Source: Gaiellaceae bacterium (lineage in GTDB: Bacteria; Actinomycetota; Thermoleophilia; Gaiellales; Gaiellaceae). Taken from it: a DNA stretch of 64,000 nt. Position numbers and translations under genes: made by a program. The notes under the pieces are model-generated. The model searched no databases and had not been told where the DNA came from. It worked only from the letters and a program-made list of their open reading frames with translations. The stretch is from the NCBI GenBank assembly GCA_036824245.1, contig DAITAO010000001.1:42964-106963 (forward strand), in the 5' to 3' direction. Within the stretch, counting starts at the first letter, position 1, and each line of letters starts with the position of its first letter. Positions 51,937 to 61,194 of the stretch are shown here, piece by piece.

Positions 51937-52074
51937 ACTTGACCGCTCGGTTGTCCCAGCTGGCAACTGGTCGGGCGGACGGGGAGGTCGAACCGGAAGC
52001 GCCGAGGAGGGTGAATACCGCACTTTGCGATGGATTGCAAGGGGTGCGCCCGAATCCGATTGAATAGGGGGTGC

Positions 52075-54078
52075 GTGTCACACGACACCGACAAGCTCAT
52101 CCGGCAGCTCTCACTCGTCGCGTTCCTGATGGCGGAACGCCGGCTGATCACTGCGCGGGACGTGAAGCAGAACGTGGAGGGCTATTCAGAGATGTCGGAC
52201 GAGGCGTTCGCGAGGCGCTTCTATTCCGACCGGGCCGAGCTGCTGGCGCTCGGCGTGCCGCTCGACTCGCAGCGGGACGAGTTCACCGGCGAGGAGCTGT
52301 ACACGCTGCGCTCGGAGCGCTACTTCCTGCCTCCGCTCGAGCTTTCGGACGACGAGCTTGCGGCCCTGCAGACGTGCCTCTATCTGCTGGAGGGCAAGTT
52401 CGCCTACGCGGAGCCGTTACGCCTCGCGCTCCAGAACCTTGCGCTGGGCCGACCGGGCTTCCGCGAGCCTGCCACGGAGACTGCCGTCCGGGTGGAGGTC
52501 TTCGATCCGGACTACTCGCCCGAGATGCCCGGCCGGCTCGCCAAGCTCGAGGCTGCCATCTCCAAGCAGCGCACCGTCAAGTTCTCCTACTGGTCGATAG
52601 CCCGCGACGAGGTTGCCGAGCGGCTGGTCAATCCCTATGCGCTGCTCTCGGACAACGGAGTCTGGTACCTGATCGGCTTCGACCTCGAGCGCGAGGCGAT
52701 ACGCACCTTCCGCGTCTCGCGCATCCGGGGCGACATTCGACTGGCCACGCGGCGAGAGCGCGACTTCCGGCTGCCGGCGGAGTTCGAGGTGGAGGAGTTC
52801 CGCGGACGCCCGCCCTGGCAGATCGGCGACATCGCCGGCGATGCGCGCATCGCAGTGGCCGGTGACACCGCCTGGTGGGTGAAGCGTGTCTTCGGCGATC
52901 GCGGCAAGGTCGTCGACGGCGTCTTCACCACGGAGTACGCAAGCCTTCCGCTCCTGGCGGCCTGGATCCTGCGTCAAGACGGGCGCGCCGTCCCGCTCGA
53001 TCCGCCCGAGCTCGTCCGCGAGGTGCAGGACTCGCTGGCCCGCGTCCGGGAGCGCCACGCCGGCGACCCGCCCGAGCTGAGCCGCGAGGCGAGACCTGTT
53101 GTCGGCGAGCCGGCCGAGCGCCCCGCCGGGCCGGTGGCTCCCGAGCGCTTCGGTGTGCTGCAGGCGCTCCTCGCGTATCTGCTCGACCGCTGCGGCGACC
53201 GCACGTCGGCCGACATCCCCGCCGCCGAGCTGGTCGAGCGCTTCCATATCCCGCACGAGGCCCTCGAGGAGCACCTCTCACTGCTCAACCTCGTGAACTT
53301 CGGCGGCGGCTGCTACGCCGTCTACGCGCAGCTGGACGGCGAGACCGTGCACGTCGAGAAGGAGCTTTTCGGCGACACGTTCAGGTCGCCTCCACGGCTC
53401 ACGCCCCTCGAGGCTCGTGCGATCCGGCTGGCGCTCGAGTTCGTGGGGCCGATGATCGCGGCCGACGCACACACACCGCTCGATCGCGTGCGGCGCAAGC
53501 TCGAGGAGACATTCGGCGAGTTCGAGCTTGCGCAGACGCCGGAACCGCACGGCAGCGCCGCCGAGGAAGGGCTCCTCTCCACGCTCACGACCGGGATACG
53601 CGACCGTCGCCTGGTCGAGCTCGAGTATCTGAAGGGCGGCGAGGAGACGCCGTCTCAGCGGGTGGTCGAGCCGTATGCGATCGAGCGCCGTCTGCCCTTC
53701 TGGTACGTCCACACGTGGGATACGACGAGCGGCGGCGAGCGCAGCTTCCGGCTCGACCGGATGCGTCGTGCGAGGCTGTCGCGCAAGCACTTCGAGCCGC
53801 GCGAGGGCTTCGAGCCACAGGGGCTACGCGACGCGCGCCGGGCGCGCATCTGGTACTCGCCCGCGGTGGCCCGCTGGAAGATCGAGCGCGGGGCACGGGC
53901 GCTCGTGGACGGTTCTGCGGTGGCGGAGCCCGCCGTCGGGAGCCCGGAGTGGCTGGTGGGCGAGATCCTCTCCGACCGCGGCGAGGCAGTCGTGCTCGAG
54001 CCGGGTGACCTGCGGCGGCAGATTGCGAAGCGGGCCGCGGCGCTCGCCAAGGAACTGAAGGTCGCCGCGCCGGCCTAG
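52075..54078 (+). CDS. pafBC: fused PafB-PafC-type WYL-domain transcriptional regulator
   Basis: Two tandem HTH-WYL-WCX halves in one ORF. The first has LIRQLSLVAFL..., VKFSYWS...NPYALLSDNGVWYLIGFD...RTFRVSRI. The second has VLQALLAYLL..., VELEYLKG...VEPYAIERRLPFWYVHTWD...RSFRLDRM. The start is GTG at 52075 or the listed 52030. Confidence 0.8.
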   Translation: MSHDTDKLIRQLSLVAFLMAERRLITARDVKQNVEGYSEMSDEAFARRFYSDRAELLALGVPLDSQRDEFTGEELYTLRSERYFLPPLELSDDELAALQTCLYLLEGKFAYAEPLRLALQNLALGRPGFREPATETAVRVEVFDPDYSPEMPGRLAKLEAAISKQRTVKFSYWSIARDEVAERLVNPYALLSDNGVWYLIGFDLEREAIRTFRVSRIRGDIRLATRRERDFRLPAEFEVEEFRGRPPWQIGDIAGDARIAVAGDTAWWVKRVFGDRGKVVDGVFTTEYASLPLLAAWILRQDGRAVPLDPPELVREVQDSLARVRERHAGDPPELSREARPVVGEPAERPAGPVAPERFGVLQALLAYLLDRCGDRTSADIPAAELVERFHIPHEALEEHLSLLNLVNFGGGCYAVYAQLDGETVHVEKELFGDTFRSPPRLTPLEARAIRLALEFVGPMIAADAHTPLDRVRRKLEETFGEFELAQTPEPHGSAAEEGLLSTLTTGIRDRRLVELEYLKGGEETPSQRVVEPYAIERRLPFWYVHTWDTTSGGERSFRLDRMRRARLSRKHFEPREGFEPQGLRDARRARIWYSPAVARWKIERGARALVDGSAVAEPAVGSPEWLVGEILSDRGEAVVLEPGDLRRQIAKRAAALAKELKVAAPA

Positions 54079-55094
54079 GGACCAGCCAGGCGATCAACCG
54101 CCCACGAAGCGGCTTCCGCGATCACCGAATCGGGATCACCGGCCAGGCGCTCCGCGTGGTGGCGCTGCTCTGGGCGACCGTTGTTGCCGAGTGCCACAAG
54201 CGCATTGCGCGTGAGATAGCGGCCCTCGTTGCGCGGCACGAATAGGCGGTCATAGCGGCGCGCGAGCTCGGCCGGGTCGGCTTCGAGCCAGTCGACGAGC
54301 GACACGGTCGGCTCGGCACCGGCAGGGAGCGGCTCCCCGGCGCGGCGCTTCTCGATGCCGCGGTTCCACGGGCAGACGTCCTGGCAGATATCGCAGCCGT
54401 ACACCTGGGCACCGAGCTCGGAGCGGTACTCCTCGGGCATCGCGCTCGATGACTGCGTCCAGTAGGAGAGGCACTTGGTGGCATCGAGCGTCCCGGGCTC
54501 GTCGAGCGCTCCGGTCGGGCAAGCGTCGATGCAGAGCGTGCACGTGCCGCAGTCGAGCTGCAGCCGTGGAGTTGCCTCCACCAGGACGTCGGTGACGAGC
54601 GTGCCGAGCACGACCCACGAGCCGTAGCGGCGGGTAATCAGCATCGTGTTCTTTCCGTAGAAGCCGACTCCGGAGCGCGCTGCGCCCTCGCGGTCGACGT
54701 GTTGGTTCGCGTCGACGAGCACGCGGTATGCGCCGCCGAGGCGGCGGCCGAGCGCGTCGAGCTTCTCACGCAGCTCGCCGTAGGCGTCGTACCACGTATA
54801 GCGCGGGAGACGGCCCTCCCCCGGTCCGGGCTCCCGACCGCTCGCGTAGTAGCAGAGCGCGGCGGACACCACCGTGCGCGCCCCCGGGAGCAGCGTCTCG
54901 GGGTGACACGAGACCTCCGGATGGGCCATCGTGAAGCGCATGTCGGCGAAGAGCCCACGCGCACGCCGCTCGTGAATGTGCCGCTCGGTGTCCTGGTAGG
55001 GCTCGGCGGGTGCCGCGCCGATGACGTCGATGCCGAGCTCCTCAGCGAGCCGCTCGAGCTCGGCGGGGGTCACACGGGTGTCCTGTACAGACAT
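54075..55094 (-). CDS. queG: epoxyqueuosine reductase
   Basis: From MSVQDTRV (ATG at 55094, GAAGGA SD). Ferredoxin motifs CGTCTLCIDACP and CDICQDVCPWN. Has GFYGKNTMLI. Confidence 0.9.
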   Translation of the reverse strand: MSVQDTRVTPAELERLAEELGIDVIGAAPAEPYQDTERHIHERRARGLFADMRFTMAHPEVSCHPETLLPGARTVVSAALCYYASGREPGPGEGRLPRYTWYDAYGELREKLDALGRRLGGAYRVLVDANQHVDREGAARSGVGFYGKNTMLITRRYGSWVVLGTLVTDVLVEATPRLQLDCGTCTLCIDACPTGALDEPGTLDATKCLSYWTQSSSAMPEEYRSELGAQVYGCDICQDVCPWNRGIEKRRAGEPLPAGAEPTVSLVDWLEADPAELARRYDRLFVPRNEGRYLTRNALVALGNNGRPEQRHHAERLAGDPDSVIAEAASWAVDRLAGP

Positions 55095-55207
55095 GTCCTT
55101 CGGTCTGGGGCCGGCCGCGGGCCTCCCTCCGATTCCACGGTAGCGGGGAAATGCGCACATGTGGGAGACGATTTCGAGGCGGAAGCGTGACGAATCGTCC
55201 GCAGCCT
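55092..55207. repeat. dispersed repeat family 1, copy C (covers the queG leader and start codon)
   Basis: See copy A. Similarity runs from the catgtcc block (complement of the queG GGACATG) through the core to cgcagcct. Confidence 0.7.
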
Positions 55208-56295: not shown

Positions 56296-56394
56296 GTCGG
56301 CGGAGCCGGGCTCAGCCCGGCGCAGCCACACCGCGGCCGCGGCGCGTCATTCTCTGAAGAAGGGGGTCAACGGGGGAAACATGGTTTCCCCCGT
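56296..56394 (+). repeat. dispersed repeat family 2, short variant ending in a hairpin at the DUF59 gene 3' end
   Basis: gtcggcggagccgggctcagcccggc ... gggggtcaACGGGGGAAAC-ATG-GTTTCCCCCGT. The 11-bp hairpin (56370-56394) begins 5 nt after the minus-strand DUF59 stop. Confidence 0.6.
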
Positions 56395-56398
56395 TCTT

Positions 56399-56698
56399 TC
56401 AGCCGAAGCCGAGGATGAACTTGGCGTCTTCGGACATGCGCTCGGGCGTCCAGGGCGGATCCCAGGTGAGCTCGATGTCGACGCGCTCGACGCCCGGCAC
56501 GGAGGCAGCCGCTTCGTGGAGGCCTTCCTGGATCATCGGGCCTGCAGGGCAGCCCATCGACGTCAGCGAGTGGATGACCTTGACGCTCGAGTTCTCGACC
56601 TCGACGTCGTAGACGAGCCCCAGCTCGACCACGTCCATGCCCAGCTCGGGGTCTTCGACCGTGCGCAGCGCCTCGAAGACCTCTTCCTTGGTCGCCAT
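56399..56698 (-). CDS. DUF59/SufT-like Fe-S assembly protein
   Basis: 99 aa. Has VEDPELGMDVVELGLVY, LTSMGCPAGPMI and WDPPWTPERMSEDAK. Confidence 0.85.
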   Translation of the reverse strand: MATKEEVFEALRTVEDPELGMDVVELGLVYDVEVENSSVKVIHSLTSMGCPAGPMIQEGLHEAAASVPGVERVDIELTWDPPWTPERMSEDAKFILGFG

Positions 56699-56752: not shown

Positions 56753-57763
56753 CTAGAACCCCGGGAGACGGACTTCCTCGCGGCGTTCGCGCGCGAAGAA
56801 GTGGACGCCGTCGACGAAGCGCACCCAGCTGCACCTCGTGCACATGACCAGCGTGTGCGTGAGGGCGCTGTCCGCGTGGTAGCGCACGCCGCGCAGCAGA
56901 TCCCCGTTCGACACGCCCGTCGCGGCCACGATCACCTCGCTGGGGGCCAGGTCGTCGATGGTGAAGACCCGCTCGATGTCGTCGATCCCCTGCGCCTCGG
57001 CCTCCTCGATCTGACGGCGCGACGTTGGCCACAGCTGCGCCTGCAGCTCGCCTCCCAGACAGCGCAGCGCCGCCGCCGCCAGGACGGCCTGGCGCGTGCC
57101 GCCGATGCCGATCGCCAGGTGATCGTTGGTGCCGCGGATAGCCGCCGAGACCGAAGCGGTGACGTCGCCGTCGGCAATCAGCTTGATGCGGGCGCCTGCC
57201 TGGCGGATCTCCTCGATCAGGTCGTGATGGCGAGCCCTGTCGAGGACAATCGTGGTGATGTCTTCGGGGCGCCGCCCGAATGCATCGGCAATTGCGCGGA
57301 TGTTGTCACCGACCGGCGCGAGCAGATCGATGCGGCCGCGTGCGCGGGGGCCGACGGACATTTTGCGCATGTACATGTCGGGCAGTGTCTGGAGGGATCC
57401 ACGCGGGCCGACGGCGATCATCGACATCGCTCCGCTCGCCCCGCGCGCGACGATGCCGCTGCCCTCGATCGGGTCGACGGCCAGATCGACCGCTTCGCCG
57501 CCGGCGCCGACCTGCCGGCCCGGTGCGAGCTCCTCGGGCCCCTCGGCGGCTCCGATCACGACCTGCCCGTCGATCGGCTGGATCTGGAGCGCCTCCCACA
57601 TTGCACGCGCGGCGGTGGCGGCGGCCGCCTCATCGTCGGCTCGCCCCAGCCACCGGGCGCCGGCGAGTGCCGCGCGCTCGGTCACGCGTGCGTACGTCTC
57701 GCAGCCGCACGCGCGCTCCTGCCCCACCTCGGTGGGCGTCGTCTCGGGCACCGTCTGCGTCAC
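56753..57763 (-). CDS. glpX: class II fructose-1,6-bisphosphatase
   Basis: 336 aa. Has DLAVDPIEGS, IADGDV, GIGGTRQAV and ATGVSNGDLLRGV. Confidence 0.9.
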   Translation of the reverse strand: MTQTVPETTPTEVGQERACGCETYARVTERAALAGARWLGRADDEAAAATAARAMWEALQIQPIDGQVVIGAAEGPEELAPGRQVGAGGEAVDLAVDPIEGSGIVARGASGAMSMIAVGPRGSLQTLPDMYMRKMSVGPRARGRIDLLAPVGDNIRAIADAFGRRPEDITTIVLDRARHHDLIEEIRQAGARIKLIADGDVTASVSAAIRGTNDHLAIGIGGTRQAVLAAAALRCLGGELQAQLWPTSRRQIEEAEAQGIDDIERVFTIDDLAPSEVIVAATGVSNGDLLRGVRYHADSALTHTLVMCTRCSWVRFVDGVHFFARERREEVRLPGF

Positions 57764-58665
57764 GACACCGTTTGTACTCGTTGCGCAGCGTCCAACACAA
57801 GCTCCATTACAGCTGCGACAGCAGCTTCCACGCCGGTGTTGACGATCACCGGCACGTCGCTGCGCCGGGCGCGCTCGAGGATGTAGCCCTGGAGGGCCCT
57901 GATGTTCGTGAAGTGCGAGACGTACTTCTCGAGCGGACGTAGGCCCTGGGACGCCGCATCACGGATGTAGAAGTGACCGAGGTGCTCGTCCTCGTCCTGG
58001 ATCGAGATCACGCACTGCACGACGAGCGGGCCCTCGATGGGCGGCAGCATCCCCGGCACGAGATGGACGCCCTCGATCACCATCGACCAGCCCTCCTGCA
58101 GCGCCCGGTCGATGGCCGCCCGCACGCCGACCAGCACGTTGCGTGTCTGATCGAGGAAGCCTGGCAGCATCCCCTCGGGGACATCGTCCTGATCAACCGC
58201 AACACGCGCCTCGAAACTGGAATCGTGGACCGACGGCATGAATTCGCGGGTGAAGAAGGCCCGCATCGTCTGGCGGATGAAATCCGTCGACGTCACCCGC
58301 GTGATGCCGAGCCGGTACGCGGCCTCCGTGGCGACTGTCGACTTGCCCGTGCCGGTGGCGCCGCCGACGAGCAGGATGATCGGAACGTCGAGCTGCTGGA
58401 GGTTGCCGTAGCGCCGCAGCCTGCTCGCAACCCGGCCTCCCTCATCGGCGCCCAGCACCTCGACCGCCAGCTCCTCGACACGGTCCAGCGAGACCGGCCC
58501 GCCGCCCTGGTTGGTCAGGTCGACCTCGATACGGCGTGCAAGCTCGTAGGCGCGATCGGGGGCGAGACCGGTGGCCATCATGGCCCGGGCCATCAGGCCC
58601 TTGGAATACGGCGGGCCTTCGTCCCCGCCGAGCGGCAGCGGATCAAGTCGCCGCGGCTCGCTCAT
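57760..58665 (-). CDS. 2-phosphoglycerate kinase family protein
   Basis: 301 aa. Has PYSKGLMARAMMATGLAPDRAYELARRIE, the P-loop LVGGATGTGKSTVA, TSTDFIRQTMR and MVIEGVHLVPG. 4-nt overlaps with both neighbours. Confidence 0.75.
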   Translation of the reverse strand: MSEPRRLDPLPLGGDEGPPYSKGLMARAMMATGLAPDRAYELARRIEVDLTNQGGGPVSLDRVEELAVEVLGADEGGRVASRLRRYGNLQQLDVPIILLVGGATGTGKSTVATEAAYRLGITRVTSTDFIRQTMRAFFTREFMPSVHDSSFEARVAVDQDDVPEGMLPGFLDQTRNVLVGVRAAIDRALQEGWSMVIEGVHLVPGMLPPIEGPLVVQCVISIQDEDEHLGHFYIRDAASQGLRPLEKYVSHFTNIRALQGYILERARRSDVPVIVNTGVEAAVAAVMELVLDAAQRVQTVS

Positions 58666-59927
58666 CGGCCGTAGCTCGGCTCATGCGTGTCAGTGAGTGC
58701 GCGCAGATGCTCGTCCAGGTCCGGCTCGCCGGGCAGAGGGCGCAGCTCGCTGTCTGCGAGTACGAGCTCGGCTCCGCGCTTCACTGCGGTCTCGGCCACC
58801 ACGTCGATCGCGGCAGCCTTCAGCTCGACGAGGAAGACATCCGCATCGACTCGCTCGAGGTCCTGCCGCAGCTCCTCGCGCCGCGCGAGGTTGCCCGAGA
58901 CGGTCACCTCGGCGGCGCCGAATTCGCTGCGCAGGTGCTCGACGAGGAGGGGGTGTGTGTCGGGAGGTGCGGTCACGAAGTAGGCGACGCGCCGTCCCGT
59001 CACCGTACGGAGCGGGCGCGGCCGCAGGGCCACCGCAACGACCGGCAGCTCTTTCACGGCCAGGATCTCGCTCCGGACATCCTCGTATGCGTTGTCCTGC
59101 TCGCTCATCGTCAGCACGACGAGGTCGGAGACGAGGATGCGGTAAGCGTTCAGGAATCCGGCCGCCAGCTCCGGCGGCTGGTGGGCCGGCACGACGAGCA
59201 CCCGGGCGTCGGCGGCCACGGGCGGTAGCGCCGCGCCGCTGCCGTCCAGCACGAGGAGGGCGGGGCTACGCTCGCGGGCGAGCTCGAGGCCCGCAGGCAC
59301 GTTCGAGATCGACGTGGCTCCCGCCAGCCCACCACCGCAGCGGCGGCAGCCGATCGTCGGCACGCCGGTCAGCGCCGCGGTCTCCAGGTAGTCCGATGCA
59401 GCATGATGCCCCGCTCGCGAGCGTTCGAGCAGATCCTCGAGCGTCGGTGGATGCTCCACGAGCTCCGGCTCGGGTGGCCCTCCTCGCCCCATGGCGAGCA
59501 CCAGCACGTCCCTGTCTCGCGCCAGAAGCCTGGCGACGTGCCCTGTCACGGCGGTCTTACCGACGCGCTTGCCCGTTCCGATCACCGCCAGAGTCGGCAG
59601 CTGCACCTCCTCGAAGCCCGGTGGCTCCAGGTAGAAATCCGGTCCGGCATACGGAAGCCCGAGTGCGAGCACGCGGCTCGCCATGCGGAAGCGCTCGCGC
59701 GGGCCGAGCACCGGCTCGTCGGAGAGGTCGACAACCACCTCGGGCTCGTGCTCGGCGATCCCGGCCTCGAGGTCGGGGACGAGCCTGACACCGTAATCGT
59801 CGTCGCCGCGCAGCTTCTCGCTGCCGCCCGCCAGGTAGGCGGCCACGACCTCGTATGAGAGGGCGCGGAGCGCGTCCCGCACGACGGGCGGGTAGTGCTC
59901 CCCGTCGATTACTGCCAGGGCTTTCAT
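58662..59927 (-). CDS. cyclic 2,3-diphosphoglycerate synthetase-like P-loop protein
   Basis: 421 aa. N-terminus MKALAVIDGEHYPPVV and the P-loop VIGTGKRVGKTAV. Size and pairing with 2PGK match my recollection of the archaeal CpgS family. Not verified by search. Confidence 0.65.
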   Translation of the reverse strand: MKALAVIDGEHYPPVVRDALRALSYEVVAAYLAGGSEKLRGDDDYGVRLVPDLEAGIAEHEPEVVVDLSDEPVLGPRERFRMASRVLALGLPYAGPDFYLEPPGFEEVQLPTLAVIGTGKRVGKTAVTGHVARLLARDRDVLVLAMGRGGPPEPELVEHPPTLEDLLERSRAGHHAASDYLETAALTGVPTIGCRRCGGGLAGATSISNVPAGLELARERSPALLVLDGSGAALPPVAADARVLVVPAHQPPELAAGFLNAYRILVSDLVVLTMSEQDNAYEDVRSEILAVKELPVVAVALRPRPLRTVTGRRVAYFVTAPPDTHPLLVEHLRSEFGAAEVTVSGNLARREELRQDLERVDADVFLVELKAAAIDVVAETAVKRGAELVLADSELRPLPGEPDLDEHLRALTDTHEPSYGR

Positions 59928-59970
59928 TCAGGCTCCCGGCCGGAAAATGCGCAGCATTTTCCGGGAGCCA

Positions 59971-60774
59971 TCAGCGAGTCGTGACCTCGTCCTCGATGCG
60001 GTCGGTGTATTTCTCGAAGGCGCGGGTCTCGGTGGAGAACTGGATGATGCGCTCCTGGCCGTGGAACGGGTACTTGCGCCAGACGTCGACATGCTTGTCG
60101 ACGATCTCGATGAGGTTGTAACAGGGCCGTGTGTTACCGCGCAGTCGCGTCGACGAAACCGTGCCGGTGTTGACGACGAAGAGGTTCTCGAGGCGCCAGG
60201 CATACGGGACGTGCTTGTGGCCGCTGAGCACCATGTCGACCCCTGCGCGCTGGAGGCACTCGATCGCGTCGCCCGCATCGTTGACGATGTTTCGCTCGCG
60301 CCCGGTCCCCGGCACGGGCAGCAGATGGTGGTGCATTACGAAGATGTTGACCCCCGAAGGCTCGGCGAACTGCTGCTCGATCCACGAGTAGCGCCCCCGG
60401 CCGATCTGGCCTTCGTCCAGGTCGGGTTGCGTCGAGTCGACGGCGACGACCGTGATGCCGTTCAGGCGCAGCACCGAGTTGCGATCGCCGAACAGCTGCT
60501 CGAAGTGGAGGTAGCCGACGTTCCGTGAGTCGTGGTTGCCCGGGATGATCACAAACGACTCGCACTGGATCCTGTCGAGGTACGACTTGGCCTCGAGATA
60601 CTCCTGCCGGAAGCCGAAGGTCGTGAGATCGCCCGTGCAGATGACGATGTCGGGCTCCATCTCGTTGATCTCGCCAATCGCCCGATCCATGAGGCTGGGC
60701 ACGAAATGCGCTCCACCACAGTGGATGTCTGAGATGTGGGCGATCAGAAACGCATTGTTCTCCGCCATCCACAC
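59971..60774 (-). CDS. calcineurin-like metallophosphoesterase
   Basis: 267 aa. Has ISDIHCG, CTGDLT, GNHD, VMHHH and GHKH. Its composition looks less GC/Arg-biased than its neighbours by eye. Confidence 0.85.
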   Translation of the reverse strand: MWMAENNAFLIAHISDIHCGGAHFVPSLMDRAIGEINEMEPDIVICTGDLTTFGFRQEYLEAKSYLDRIQCESFVIIPGNHDSRNVGYLHFEQLFGDRNSVLRLNGITVVAVDSTQPDLDEGQIGRGRYSWIEQQFAEPSGVNIFVMHHHLLPVPGTGRERNIVNDAGDAIECLQRAGVDMVLSGHKHVPYAWRLENLFVVNTGTVSSTRLRGNTRPCYNLIEIVDKHVDVWRKYPFHGQERIIQFSTETRAFEKYTDRIEDEVTTR

Positions 60775-60825
60775 AAGTCTAGAGCGCGCGCATGACGCTC
60801 ATCCGACGGCGCTGCTAGCCTTCCG

Positions 60826-61194
60826 GTGCGTGCAGAAATGCCCGTTTTCCAGGCATATTCAGGAATTGAGGAACCGCGCTTTGCGAACGACGTCGAGCTC
60901 GAGTGCGCGAAGATCCTCGACTACCACGGCGTGCCGTGGGAGTACGAGCCGCGCACATTCGTGCTCGAGCGCGATAGCGAGGGCCGGGTGGTCGAGGCGT
61001 TCACGCCCGACTTCTACCTGCCTGAACAGGACCTCTACCTGGAGGTCACGACCATGAAGCAGTCGCTCGTCACCCGCAAGAATCGCAAGCTGCGCAAGCT
61101 GCGTGAGCGCTACCCCGAGGTGCGGGCGAAGCTCTTCTACAAGCGCGACATCGAGCGTCTGGCGCAACGATACGGTCTCGACCTAGCCAGCTGA
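60826..61194 (+). CDS. hypothetical protein with PD-(D/E)xK-like motif
   Basis: 122 aa (start at 60826 or ATG at 60838). FTPDFYLPEQDLYLEVTTMK resembles TnsA/Vsr-type nuclease cores. Basic C-terminus. Confidence 0.45.
   Translation: MRAEMPVFQAYSGIEEPRFANDVELECAKILDYHGVPWEYEPRTFVLERDSEGRVVEAFTPDFYLPEQDLYLEVTTMKQSLVTRKNRKLRKLRERYPEVRAKLFYKRDIERLAQRYGLDLAS

Follow-up and report, generated by a model that had tools for sequence, protein, structure and literature searches.

A conserved gene cluster predicted to make, and perhaps to turn over, cyclic 2,3-diphosphoglycerate in Gaiellales-like bacteria

The DNA analyzed here is a 64,000-nucleotide stretch (the window) from a Gaiellaceae bacterium (contig DAITAO010000001.1, positions 42,964 to 106,963), and it contains a set of minus-strand genes that we predict to function in the metabolism of cyclic 2,3-diphosphoglycerate (cDPG). 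First in the operon is a gene (59971-60774) for a calcineurin-like metallophosphoesterase (MPE), which has 267 amino acids if its GTG start codon is used, or 265 if translation begins at an ATG at 60768, as in the database gene call P0423. It is followed by genes for a 421-amino-acid homologue of cDPG synthetase (CpgS; 58662-59927), a 301-amino-acid homologue of 2-phosphoglycerate kinase (2PGK; 57760-58665), and the 336-amino-acid class II fructose-1,6-bisphosphatase GlpX (56753-57763). A preliminary description of this DNA had proposed these four co-directional genes, and we found all four open reading frames where it had placed them. The motifs it quoted, GTGKRVGKT in CpgS and the P-loop GGATGTGKST in the kinase, are both present. 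Its names for the two outer genes also hold. GlpX scores above the cutoff of TIGR00330 (274.6 bits versus 259.3) and matches PF03320 (E = 2e-103), and the MPE matches PF00149 (E = 7.6e-20, 72.6 bits versus a gathering threshold of 21.5).

The genes are closely packed. The stop codon of cpgS and the start codon of 2pgk share the tetranucleotide ATGA (58662-58665), and the 2pgk stop codon and glpX start codon share GTGA (57760-57763). Both overlaps had been described before, and both can be read directly from the sequence. They imply a single mRNA and coupled translation. A 43-nucleotide spacer holding a strong hairpin separates the MPE gene from cpgS, but this is an exception among 81 related loci. 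The relatives usually have a 4-nucleotide overlap at this junction, which strengthens the earlier proposal of one translationally coupled operon. From the evidence below, we consider it likely that this vertically inherited, chromosomal, Gaiellales-like operon encodes everything needed to make cDPG and probably also to turn it over.

The 421-residue protein had been assigned to the cDPG synthetase family, and database searches bear this out. In phmmer, its residues 2-393 matched the cDPG synthetase of Methanothermus fervidus (PDB 8ORU/8ORK) with an E value of 5e-81, and the two proteins are 41% identical over 392 aligned columns. Identity to the methanogen cDPG synthetases ranges from 38 to 41%. 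A PDB sequence search at E <= 1 returned only proteins named cDPG synthetase, so the best PDB matches do not lie in some other P-loop family, which is what the preliminary description had said would count against the assignment. There was no match in NCBIfam or in the copy of Pfam that we scanned, which lacks the PF27272 (CpgS_N) model. That domain is precomputed in relatives that are 65-70% identical to the window protein. An exact sequence look-up of the window CpgS returned no record.

We also asked if the residues that bind ligands are conserved. These were taken from the published structure (PMC10690619), with the M. fervidus numbering rebuilt from the printed alignment and mapped onto the window protein through a 54-sequence alignment. 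All 11 checkable ligand residues for ATP, Mg, and 2,3-diphosphoglycerate (2,3-DPG) are kept. They comprise the trans-subunit pair E45 and K46 (E37 and K38 in the window protein), the 2,3-DPG contacts K145 and R146 (K120 and R121), the Walker lysine K149 (K124), the Mg ligands T150 and D208 (T125 and D179), and the nucleotide contacts E305, T353, E404, and K406 (E276, T319, E368, and K370). Seven of them (K38, K120, R121, K124, T125, E368, and K370 in window numbering) are invariant in a 53-sequence family alignment. The Walker A motif is GTGKRVGKT, and its K120, R121, K124, and T125 columns are invariant in 54 family members. An ADP contact reported as P335 (PMC10690619) found no counterpart, as position 335 is a phenylalanine in the deposited 8ORK chain. 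The neighboring P337 and P339 are conserved as P303 and P305 in the window protein. P335 is probably a numbering slip in that paper. Judged by its sequence, the CpgS active site is intact.

The CpgS tree is star-like, with archaeal and bacterial branches interleaved, and the high-GC bacterial proteins form a clade of their own. The PDB holds a second structure named cDPG synthetase, 9sxb, a 436-residue protein that shares 49% identity with the methanogen enzymes and 39% with the window CpgS. We considered whether this might be an earlier structure of a bacterial cDPG synthetase, but its sequence is rich in K, E, and I and it groups with the archaeal-type members, and so we rejected that idea.

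Similarity to the synthetases does not by itself fix the reaction, and CpgS might have diverged to act as an ADP-forming ligase like the arginine synthetase ArcE, or on a different bisphosphorylated acid. ArcE (TK2200), which we see as the most important rival identity, is a P-loop enzyme whose resemblance to cDPG synthetases can be detected, and it is widespread in bacteria, including Actinomycetota, having gone unrecognized for decades (Michimori et al. 2024, PMC11032458). Assays have been made on only a few methanogen cDPG synthetases, and the window protein is no more than 41% identical to the methanogen proteins. However, the authors of the ArcE study graded its similarity to cDPG synthetases as "low," and their BLAST search with TK2200 gave no protein of known function (PMC11032458), whereas the window CpgS matches cDPG synthetase along its full length. 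The window protein also keeps the equivalents of the 2,3-DPG contacts K145 and R146, the trans-acting E45, and the Mg ligands T150 and D208. Its constant neighbor is a kinase predicted to make the CpgS substrate, and there is no arcB (ornithine transcarbamylase) or arcC (carbamate kinase) gene nearby. For these reasons we judged ArcE an unlikely identity for the window CpgS, and we consider divergence of either kind improbable.

The 301-residue protein had been assigned to the 2PGK family. Its best model is indeed NF003259 (2PGK), with an E value of 7.2e-79 and a match to profile positions 15-296 of 306, although the score is under the curated cutoff, a point that we return to below. The next-best model outside 2PGK, mevalonate-3-phosphate 5-kinase, scored only 70 bits. 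For all four proteins, the family matches are far stronger than chance would give.

To see how widely this gene arrangement occurs, we turned to other genomes. The nearest relatives of the window CpgS share 65-72% of its residues and, where named, come from metagenome-assembled genomes (MAGs) of Gaiellaceae, Gaiellales, or Thermoleophilia. When each species was represented by a single genome, at least 462 species-level genomes had a CpgS relative. The best 80 of these were all Gaiellales/Thermoleophilia MAGs, many of them from soil, and they included closed chromosomes and many "MFD" MAGs, which we believe were generated by Microflora Danica, the Danish soil survey. The family is compact, with 282 clusters (at 50% identity) found at E <= 1e-30 among 1.84 billion representatives. 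Its members are from Methanobacteriales (Methanobacterium and Methanobrevibacter included), the Asgard archaeon "Ca. Borrarchaeum," Cloacimonadota, and several bacterial lineages. The kinase-synthetase pair had been described as unusual in a bacterium. Instead, the pair belongs to the conserved core of Gaiellales and is also found in other bacterial lineages.

We counted synteny by tblastn in 81 Gaiellales-type loci. MPE and CpgS were present in all of them and 2PGK in 80. The MPE stop codon overlapped the cpgS start codon by 4 nucleotides in 58 of the 81 loci and by 1 nucleotide in another 12. Four-nucleotide overlaps were also common between cpgS and 2pgk (65 of 79 loci) and between 2pgk and glpX (42 of 54). 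GlpX was encoded at this position in 55 of the 81 loci and was missing from the other 26. The preliminary description had joined the pair in one unit with both the phosphoesterase and GlpX. The first of these associations stands and is constant, but GlpX is optional. We rejected it as a core member because it is out of the cluster in those 26 loci and because, in another lineage, a gene of the transaldolase/fructose-6-phosphate aldolase (TAL/FSA) family is there instead. Therefore, the core of the cluster is MPE-CpgS-2PGK.

These data also bear on the origin of the locus. It was from archaea that the enzyme family was originally described, and the interleaved, star-like CpgS tree might suggest a recent horizontal acquisition from that domain, or even an assembly or binning contaminant. 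However, the GC content of the locus (0.69-0.70) matches that of the window, where GC is uniform, and the flanks are core bacterial genes (gltX, gcvP/glycine cleavage, mur genes, secDF, queG, and hpt). Approximately 80 Gaiellales genomes, closed chromosomes among them, have this locus between the same flanking genes, and the high-GC bacterial CpgS proteins group together. No paralogs of the operon genes were found in the window. The conserved synteny, GC content, and flanking genes effectively refute a recent island or a contaminant, and we regard the chance of either as negligible. The locus is a native, vertically inherited chromosomal trait of Gaiellales-like bacteria.

Beyond Gaiellales, we analyzed eight further non-methanogen contexts, which range in GC content from 35 to 70% and have differing flanking genes. 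A 2PGK homologue adjoined cpgS in all eight. An orthologous MPE adjoined it in six (L082, L083, L090, L086, L089, and L085 in our numbering of loci). The single-domain MPEs of L082, L083, and L090 are 52-65% identical to the window MPE (52% for L082 and 61% for L090), and the L086 MPE is a partial copy. The other two are tandem-double MPE fusions, one from "Ca. Borrarchaeum" (L085, 6550-8067, 505 amino acids) and one from Cloacimonadota (L089, 7733-9232, 499 amino acids). Aligned along their full length, these fusions share 35% identity, which points to movement of the cluster between domains. In the Asgard fusion, the GNHD motif of the C-terminal half is degenerate (GHRD). Some of these clusters have additional genes: CBS-domain genes in L089 and L084, a GDPD gene in L085, and a gene for a 5'-nucleotidase-type MPE in L089.

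A second common gene order, (hom-thrC ...) MPE-CpgS-2PGK-TAL/FSA-Rho, was found at GC contents of 36-71% (L082, L090, L092, L096, L101, and others). Here the TAL/FSA gene holds the place that GlpX has in Gaiellales. We also did the reciprocal analysis by scanning metagenomes with the MPE motifs alone. The sample consisted of orthologs with at least 52% identity to the MPE of L082, which heads the query alignment. In all 60 evaluable loci, meaning those with enough downstream sequence, cpgS was immediately downstream of the MPE gene. Comparative genomics gives strong support to a functional link between the MPE and the cDPG pathway.

What might the MPE do? Its binuclear-metal motifs are invariant in an alignment of orthologs (D16-x-H18, G48-D49, G79-N80-H81-D82, H148-H150, and G185-H186-x-H188), and from its sequence the protein looks catalytically competent. 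A reasonably confident AF2 model (pLDDT 79.7, pTM 0.84) has Rv0805 and GpdQ as its nearest PDB folds, with TM scores of approximately 0.7 and 18-20% sequence identity. Two signatures, DS[ST]xPD..G..G and HHH..P.P..GRER...AGD, are invariant from the Gaiellales proteins to the Asgard fusion. The first is in a low-confidence loop of the model (residues 116-127), which is Arg-rich in Gaiellales orthologs and has an invariant R126. The basic residues of the signatures may serve in binding a polyanionic substrate. The MPE is better conserved among Gaiellales (76-85% identity) than CpgS is (65-70%).

JGI pipelines have named MPE orthologs "3',5'-cyclic AMP phosphodiesterase CpdA" or "Icc protein," and structure and sequence comparisons place it closest to Rv0805, GpdQ, and CpdA-type enzymes. 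This raises the possibility that the MPE is a class III 3',5'-cAMP phosphodiesterase that is beside the cDPG genes by inherited synteny only. However, it scored 38.7 bits against the CpdA/Icc model NF008359, which has a cutoff of 225. With a score so far under the cutoff the label is unjustified, and it is probably wrong. The low identity to Rv0805 and GpdQ is a further argument against it. In addition, the adjacency of the MPE gene and cpgS outlasts changes in gene order, gene fusion, flanking genes, GC content (35-72%), and domain of life, which inherited synteny cannot explain, and 4-nucleotide coupling to cpgS is the rule. We consider a cAMP phosphodiesterase very improbable. A role in anti-phage defense was also rejected. 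DS-8/DS-9 defense proteins were the top NCBIfam models, but the matches were partial (67 bits for DS9_1 versus a cutoff of 420). The PADLOC matches were weak and generic, and there were none for the neighboring genes.

The established archaeal pathway (PMC1224877, PMC10690619) suggests how the module might work. 2PGK would use ATP to convert 2-phosphoglycerate (2-PG), from the glycolytic/gluconeogenic C3 pool, to 2,3-bisphosphoglycerate (2,3-BPG). Dimeric CpgS would then spend another ATP on closing the intramolecular pyrophosphate ring, yielding cDPG, ADP, and Pi. GlpX, where present, would tie the module to gluconeogenic flux. In archaea, cDPG synthesis branches off gluconeogenesis at 2-PG (Roberts 2005, PMC1224877), and this diversion of carbon fits the recurrence of GlpX, TAL/FSA, or phosphoglycerate mutase genes beside the cluster.

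The hydrolytic arm is less certain. The MPE might open cDPG to 2,3-BPG, or it might dephosphorylate 2,3-BPG, and either activity would mobilize the cDPG pool as carbon, phosphate, or energy. Some members of the MPE superfamily, including LpxH, ApaH, and ADPRibase-Mn, hydrolyze pyrophosphate bonds. Because the superfamily has such members, and because cDPG degradation is the only step of the pathway that has no gene (PMC1224877), we propose the MPE as a candidate cDPG/2,3-BPG phosphohydrolase.

The tight linkage shows that the genes are functionally connected but not through which reaction. The pair might make 2,3-BPG and cDPG while the MPE has some other pathway-linked role. It could be a 2,3-BPG or phosphoglycerate phosphatase that sets the intermediate pool, it could remove side products, or it could scavenge organophosphates to feed a cDPG phosphate store. 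The GDPD gene in the Asgard cluster and the 5'-nucleotidase-type MPE gene in the Cloacimonadota cluster hint at phosphate scavenging, and co-expression with a synthetase suits a helper enzyme better than an antagonist. However, none of these alternatives is favored at the level of chemistry, whereas hydrolysis of a pyrophosphate bond is within the repertoire of the superfamily and would supply the one step that lacks a gene. A different pathway-linked role for the MPE is rather unlikely in our estimation, but it deserves to be taken seriously.

The cDPG hydrolase assignment is part of a broader proposal, which we make tentatively and see as possible rather than probable. It is that Gaiellales, other mesophilic bacteria, and an Asgard archaeon synthesize cDPG for stress protection or for phosphate/carbon storage, with the cpgS-linked MPE acting as the cDPG hydrolase of a three-gene module. 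Under this proposal cDPG would be widespread among soil bacteria and not a thermoprotectant confined to methanogens. Since these soil bacteria are mesophiles, a role in storing phosphate or carbon, or in protection from osmotic stress or desiccation, seems likelier than thermoprotection.

Several observations weigh against a complete cDPG module, against the MPE as its hydrolase, or against both. If a hydrolase is co-transcribed with the synthetase and is not regulated, the two could waste ATP in a futile cycle. Since the MPE would be co-expressed with the synthetic enzymes, it is presumably controlled after translation. Two bacterial clusters (L084 and L091) have no MPE, and one of these two lineages has a gene for cofactor-independent phosphoglycerate mutase in the cluster. 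That enzyme makes 2-PG. The cpgS genes of M. fervidus and Methanothermobacter, in which cDPG has been established by experiment, lie beside neither 2pgk nor an MPE gene. The nearest characterized relatives of the MPE are phosphodiesterases that are so distant (18-20% identity) that inference of its substrate is weak. The kinase score, 265.3 bits, is below the curated NF003259 cutoff of 343, and some kinases of the 2PGK family act on other substrates, mevalonate-3-phosphate 5-kinase being one of them. The cpgS-adjacent kinases outside methanogens, including the Asgard one, are under this cutoff too (281-313 bits). Because every such kinase examined falls short, the cutoff appears, from sequence comparison, to be tuned to methanogens. 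The only cDPG hydrolase activity that has been described is membrane bound (PMC1224877), whereas the MPE appears to be soluble. Finally, cDPG has been reported only from methanogens and was described as exclusive to hyperthermophilic ones (De Rose et al. 2023, PMC10690619). This agrees with the statement in the preliminary description that the pathway is established only in hyperthermophilic or thermophilic methanogens.

The gene itself is distributed more broadly than that. The cDPG synthetases of Methanobacterium and Methanobrevibacter (P0289, P0307, P0370, P0371, and others) are approximately 70% identical to the M. fervidus enzyme. Both genera are largely mesophilic. Because they carry it, cpgS is not a marker of thermophily even within archaea. 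In methanogens, we also noticed a small RimB-like gene (PF05618) directly after cpgS, in both Methanothermobacter (L087, 7405-7935) and M. fervidus (L088, 5914-6492). The two proteins have 176 and 192 amino acids and are 56% identical. In methanogens specifically, the RimB-like protein may be a conserved partner of the synthetase.

Within the window, the transcription unit is probably longer than four genes. A minus-strand gene for a 99-amino-acid SufT/DUF59-like Fe-S assembly protein (56399-56698; PF01883, E = 1.8e-20) begins 54 nucleotides downstream of glpX. The only terminator-like site between 56100 and 61300 is a palindrome, GGGGGAAACATGGTTTCCCC, at 56372-56391, which is beyond the SufT-like gene and between the end of the operon and a convergent ADH gene. 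Therefore, the unit probably has five genes, from the MPE gene through the SufT-like gene. The SufT-like gene was present in 76 of the 81 Gaiellales loci but not in the clusters of other lineages, and its functional link to cDPG is doubtful.

From the gene arrangement, the operon promoter is inferred to be in the 51-nucleotide divergent intergenic region at 60775-60825. We found no sigma-70-type consensus and no Rfam match there. On the other side of this region, 51 nucleotides from the MPE start codon, is a plus-strand gene (60826-61194) for a conserved 122-amino-acid protein that has no match in Pfam, NCBIfam, or PADLOC. This gene and hpt are kept beside the locus in 77 of the 81 Gaiellales loci but not in other lineages that carry cpgS. 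Farther away, a plus-strand gene for a 682-amino-acid, double-WYL, PafBC-like regulator (52030-54078) converges with queG on the minus strand (54075-55160), and their stop codons overlap by 4 nucleotides. This regulator/queG pair borders the cDPG locus in many Gaiellales genomes.

The hairpin in the spacer between the MPE gene and cpgS (59931-59969, minus strand) has a centroid fold of -25 kcal/mol and a z score of -2.3 versus shuffled sequences. It overlaps, and pairs with, the cpgS Shine-Dalgarno sequence GGGAG, has no T-tract, occurs once in the window, and has no Rfam match. We considered a conserved RNA thermometer or attenuator acting over the Shine-Dalgarno sequence, or another conserved regulator, but rejected these ideas. 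Most of the 81 relatives have a 4-nucleotide gene overlap at this point, few have any spacer, and the structures of their spacers are unrelated. Therefore, the hairpin is best seen as a lineage-specific insertion. In this strain it could uncouple or modulate translation of cpgS.

We found no relevant paper in literature searches for cDPG or its genes in bacteria, including a search for diphosphoglycerate with Gaiella. Naming at the gene level is not new, as annotation pipelines already label bacterial proteins as cDPG synthetase. What does appear to be new is the operon organization, its universality in Gaiellales, which have been sampled largely from soil, and, most significantly, the cpgS-linked MPE subfamily. 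Homology and gene linkage lead us to predict cDPG as a product of common mesophilic bacteria, and outside Gaiellales the gene pair is also carried by other bacteria of non-thermal habitats. If the pair is active, then the distribution of cDPG and its physiological meaning need to be rethought. Evolutionary reconstructions have relied on the cDPG synthetase gene to mark thermophily (PMC7554672), and it would be unreliable for that purpose. The gap left by the missing hydrolase gene is decades old, and the MPE subfamily offers a concrete and easily cloned candidate. cDPG is also under development as an extremolyte product (PMC12136491), and for its production, mesophilic bacterial enzymes that already come as an operon could be easier to use than those of hyperthermophilic archaea.

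How, then, do the components of this cluster compare with known systems? The closest is the M. fervidus cDPG synthetase (8ORK/8ORU; De Rose et al. 2023, PMC10690619). The homology is full length, the Walker A motif GTGKR[IV]GKT is common to both proteins, and in both the N-terminal dimerization domain bears the trans-acting E/K pair. However, the window CpgS is approximately 40 residues shorter, through loop deletions, and its host is a high-GC, mesophilic bacterium. It is also encoded in an operon with 2PGK and the MPE, whereas the cpgS genes of M. fervidus and Methanothermobacter are apart from 2pgk. ArcE is a more distant P-loop enzyme of the same superfamily that is also widespread in bacteria. 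It is associated with arcB and arcC, unlike the 2PGK-associated window CpgS, and it resembles cDPG synthetases only remotely, whereas the window protein is a close relative of them. The window kinase shares with archaeal 2PGK (NF003259/COG2074) its best-scoring family, an end-to-end alignment, and the P-loop, but it differs in its sub-cutoff score (265 versus 343 bits), and it is genomically coupled to cpgS.

For the MPE, the class III phosphodiesterases Rv0805, GpdQ, and CpdA have the calcineurin-like fold and the full set of metal motifs in common with it. They differ in their low identity to it (18-20%), whereas the MPE has subfamily signatures of its own and is strictly linked to cpgS. In terms of the reaction, the counterpart is the cDPG hydrolase activity of Methanothermobacter thermautotrophicus, which converts cDPG to 2,3-DPG and is inhibited by K+ and Pi, and for which the review that describes it names no gene (PMC1224877). 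This is the same reaction as the one proposed for the MPE, which would allow the pool to turn over under regulation. However, the M. thermautotrophicus enzyme is membrane bound and the MPE looks soluble, and no MPE gene adjoins cpgS in Methanobacteriales.

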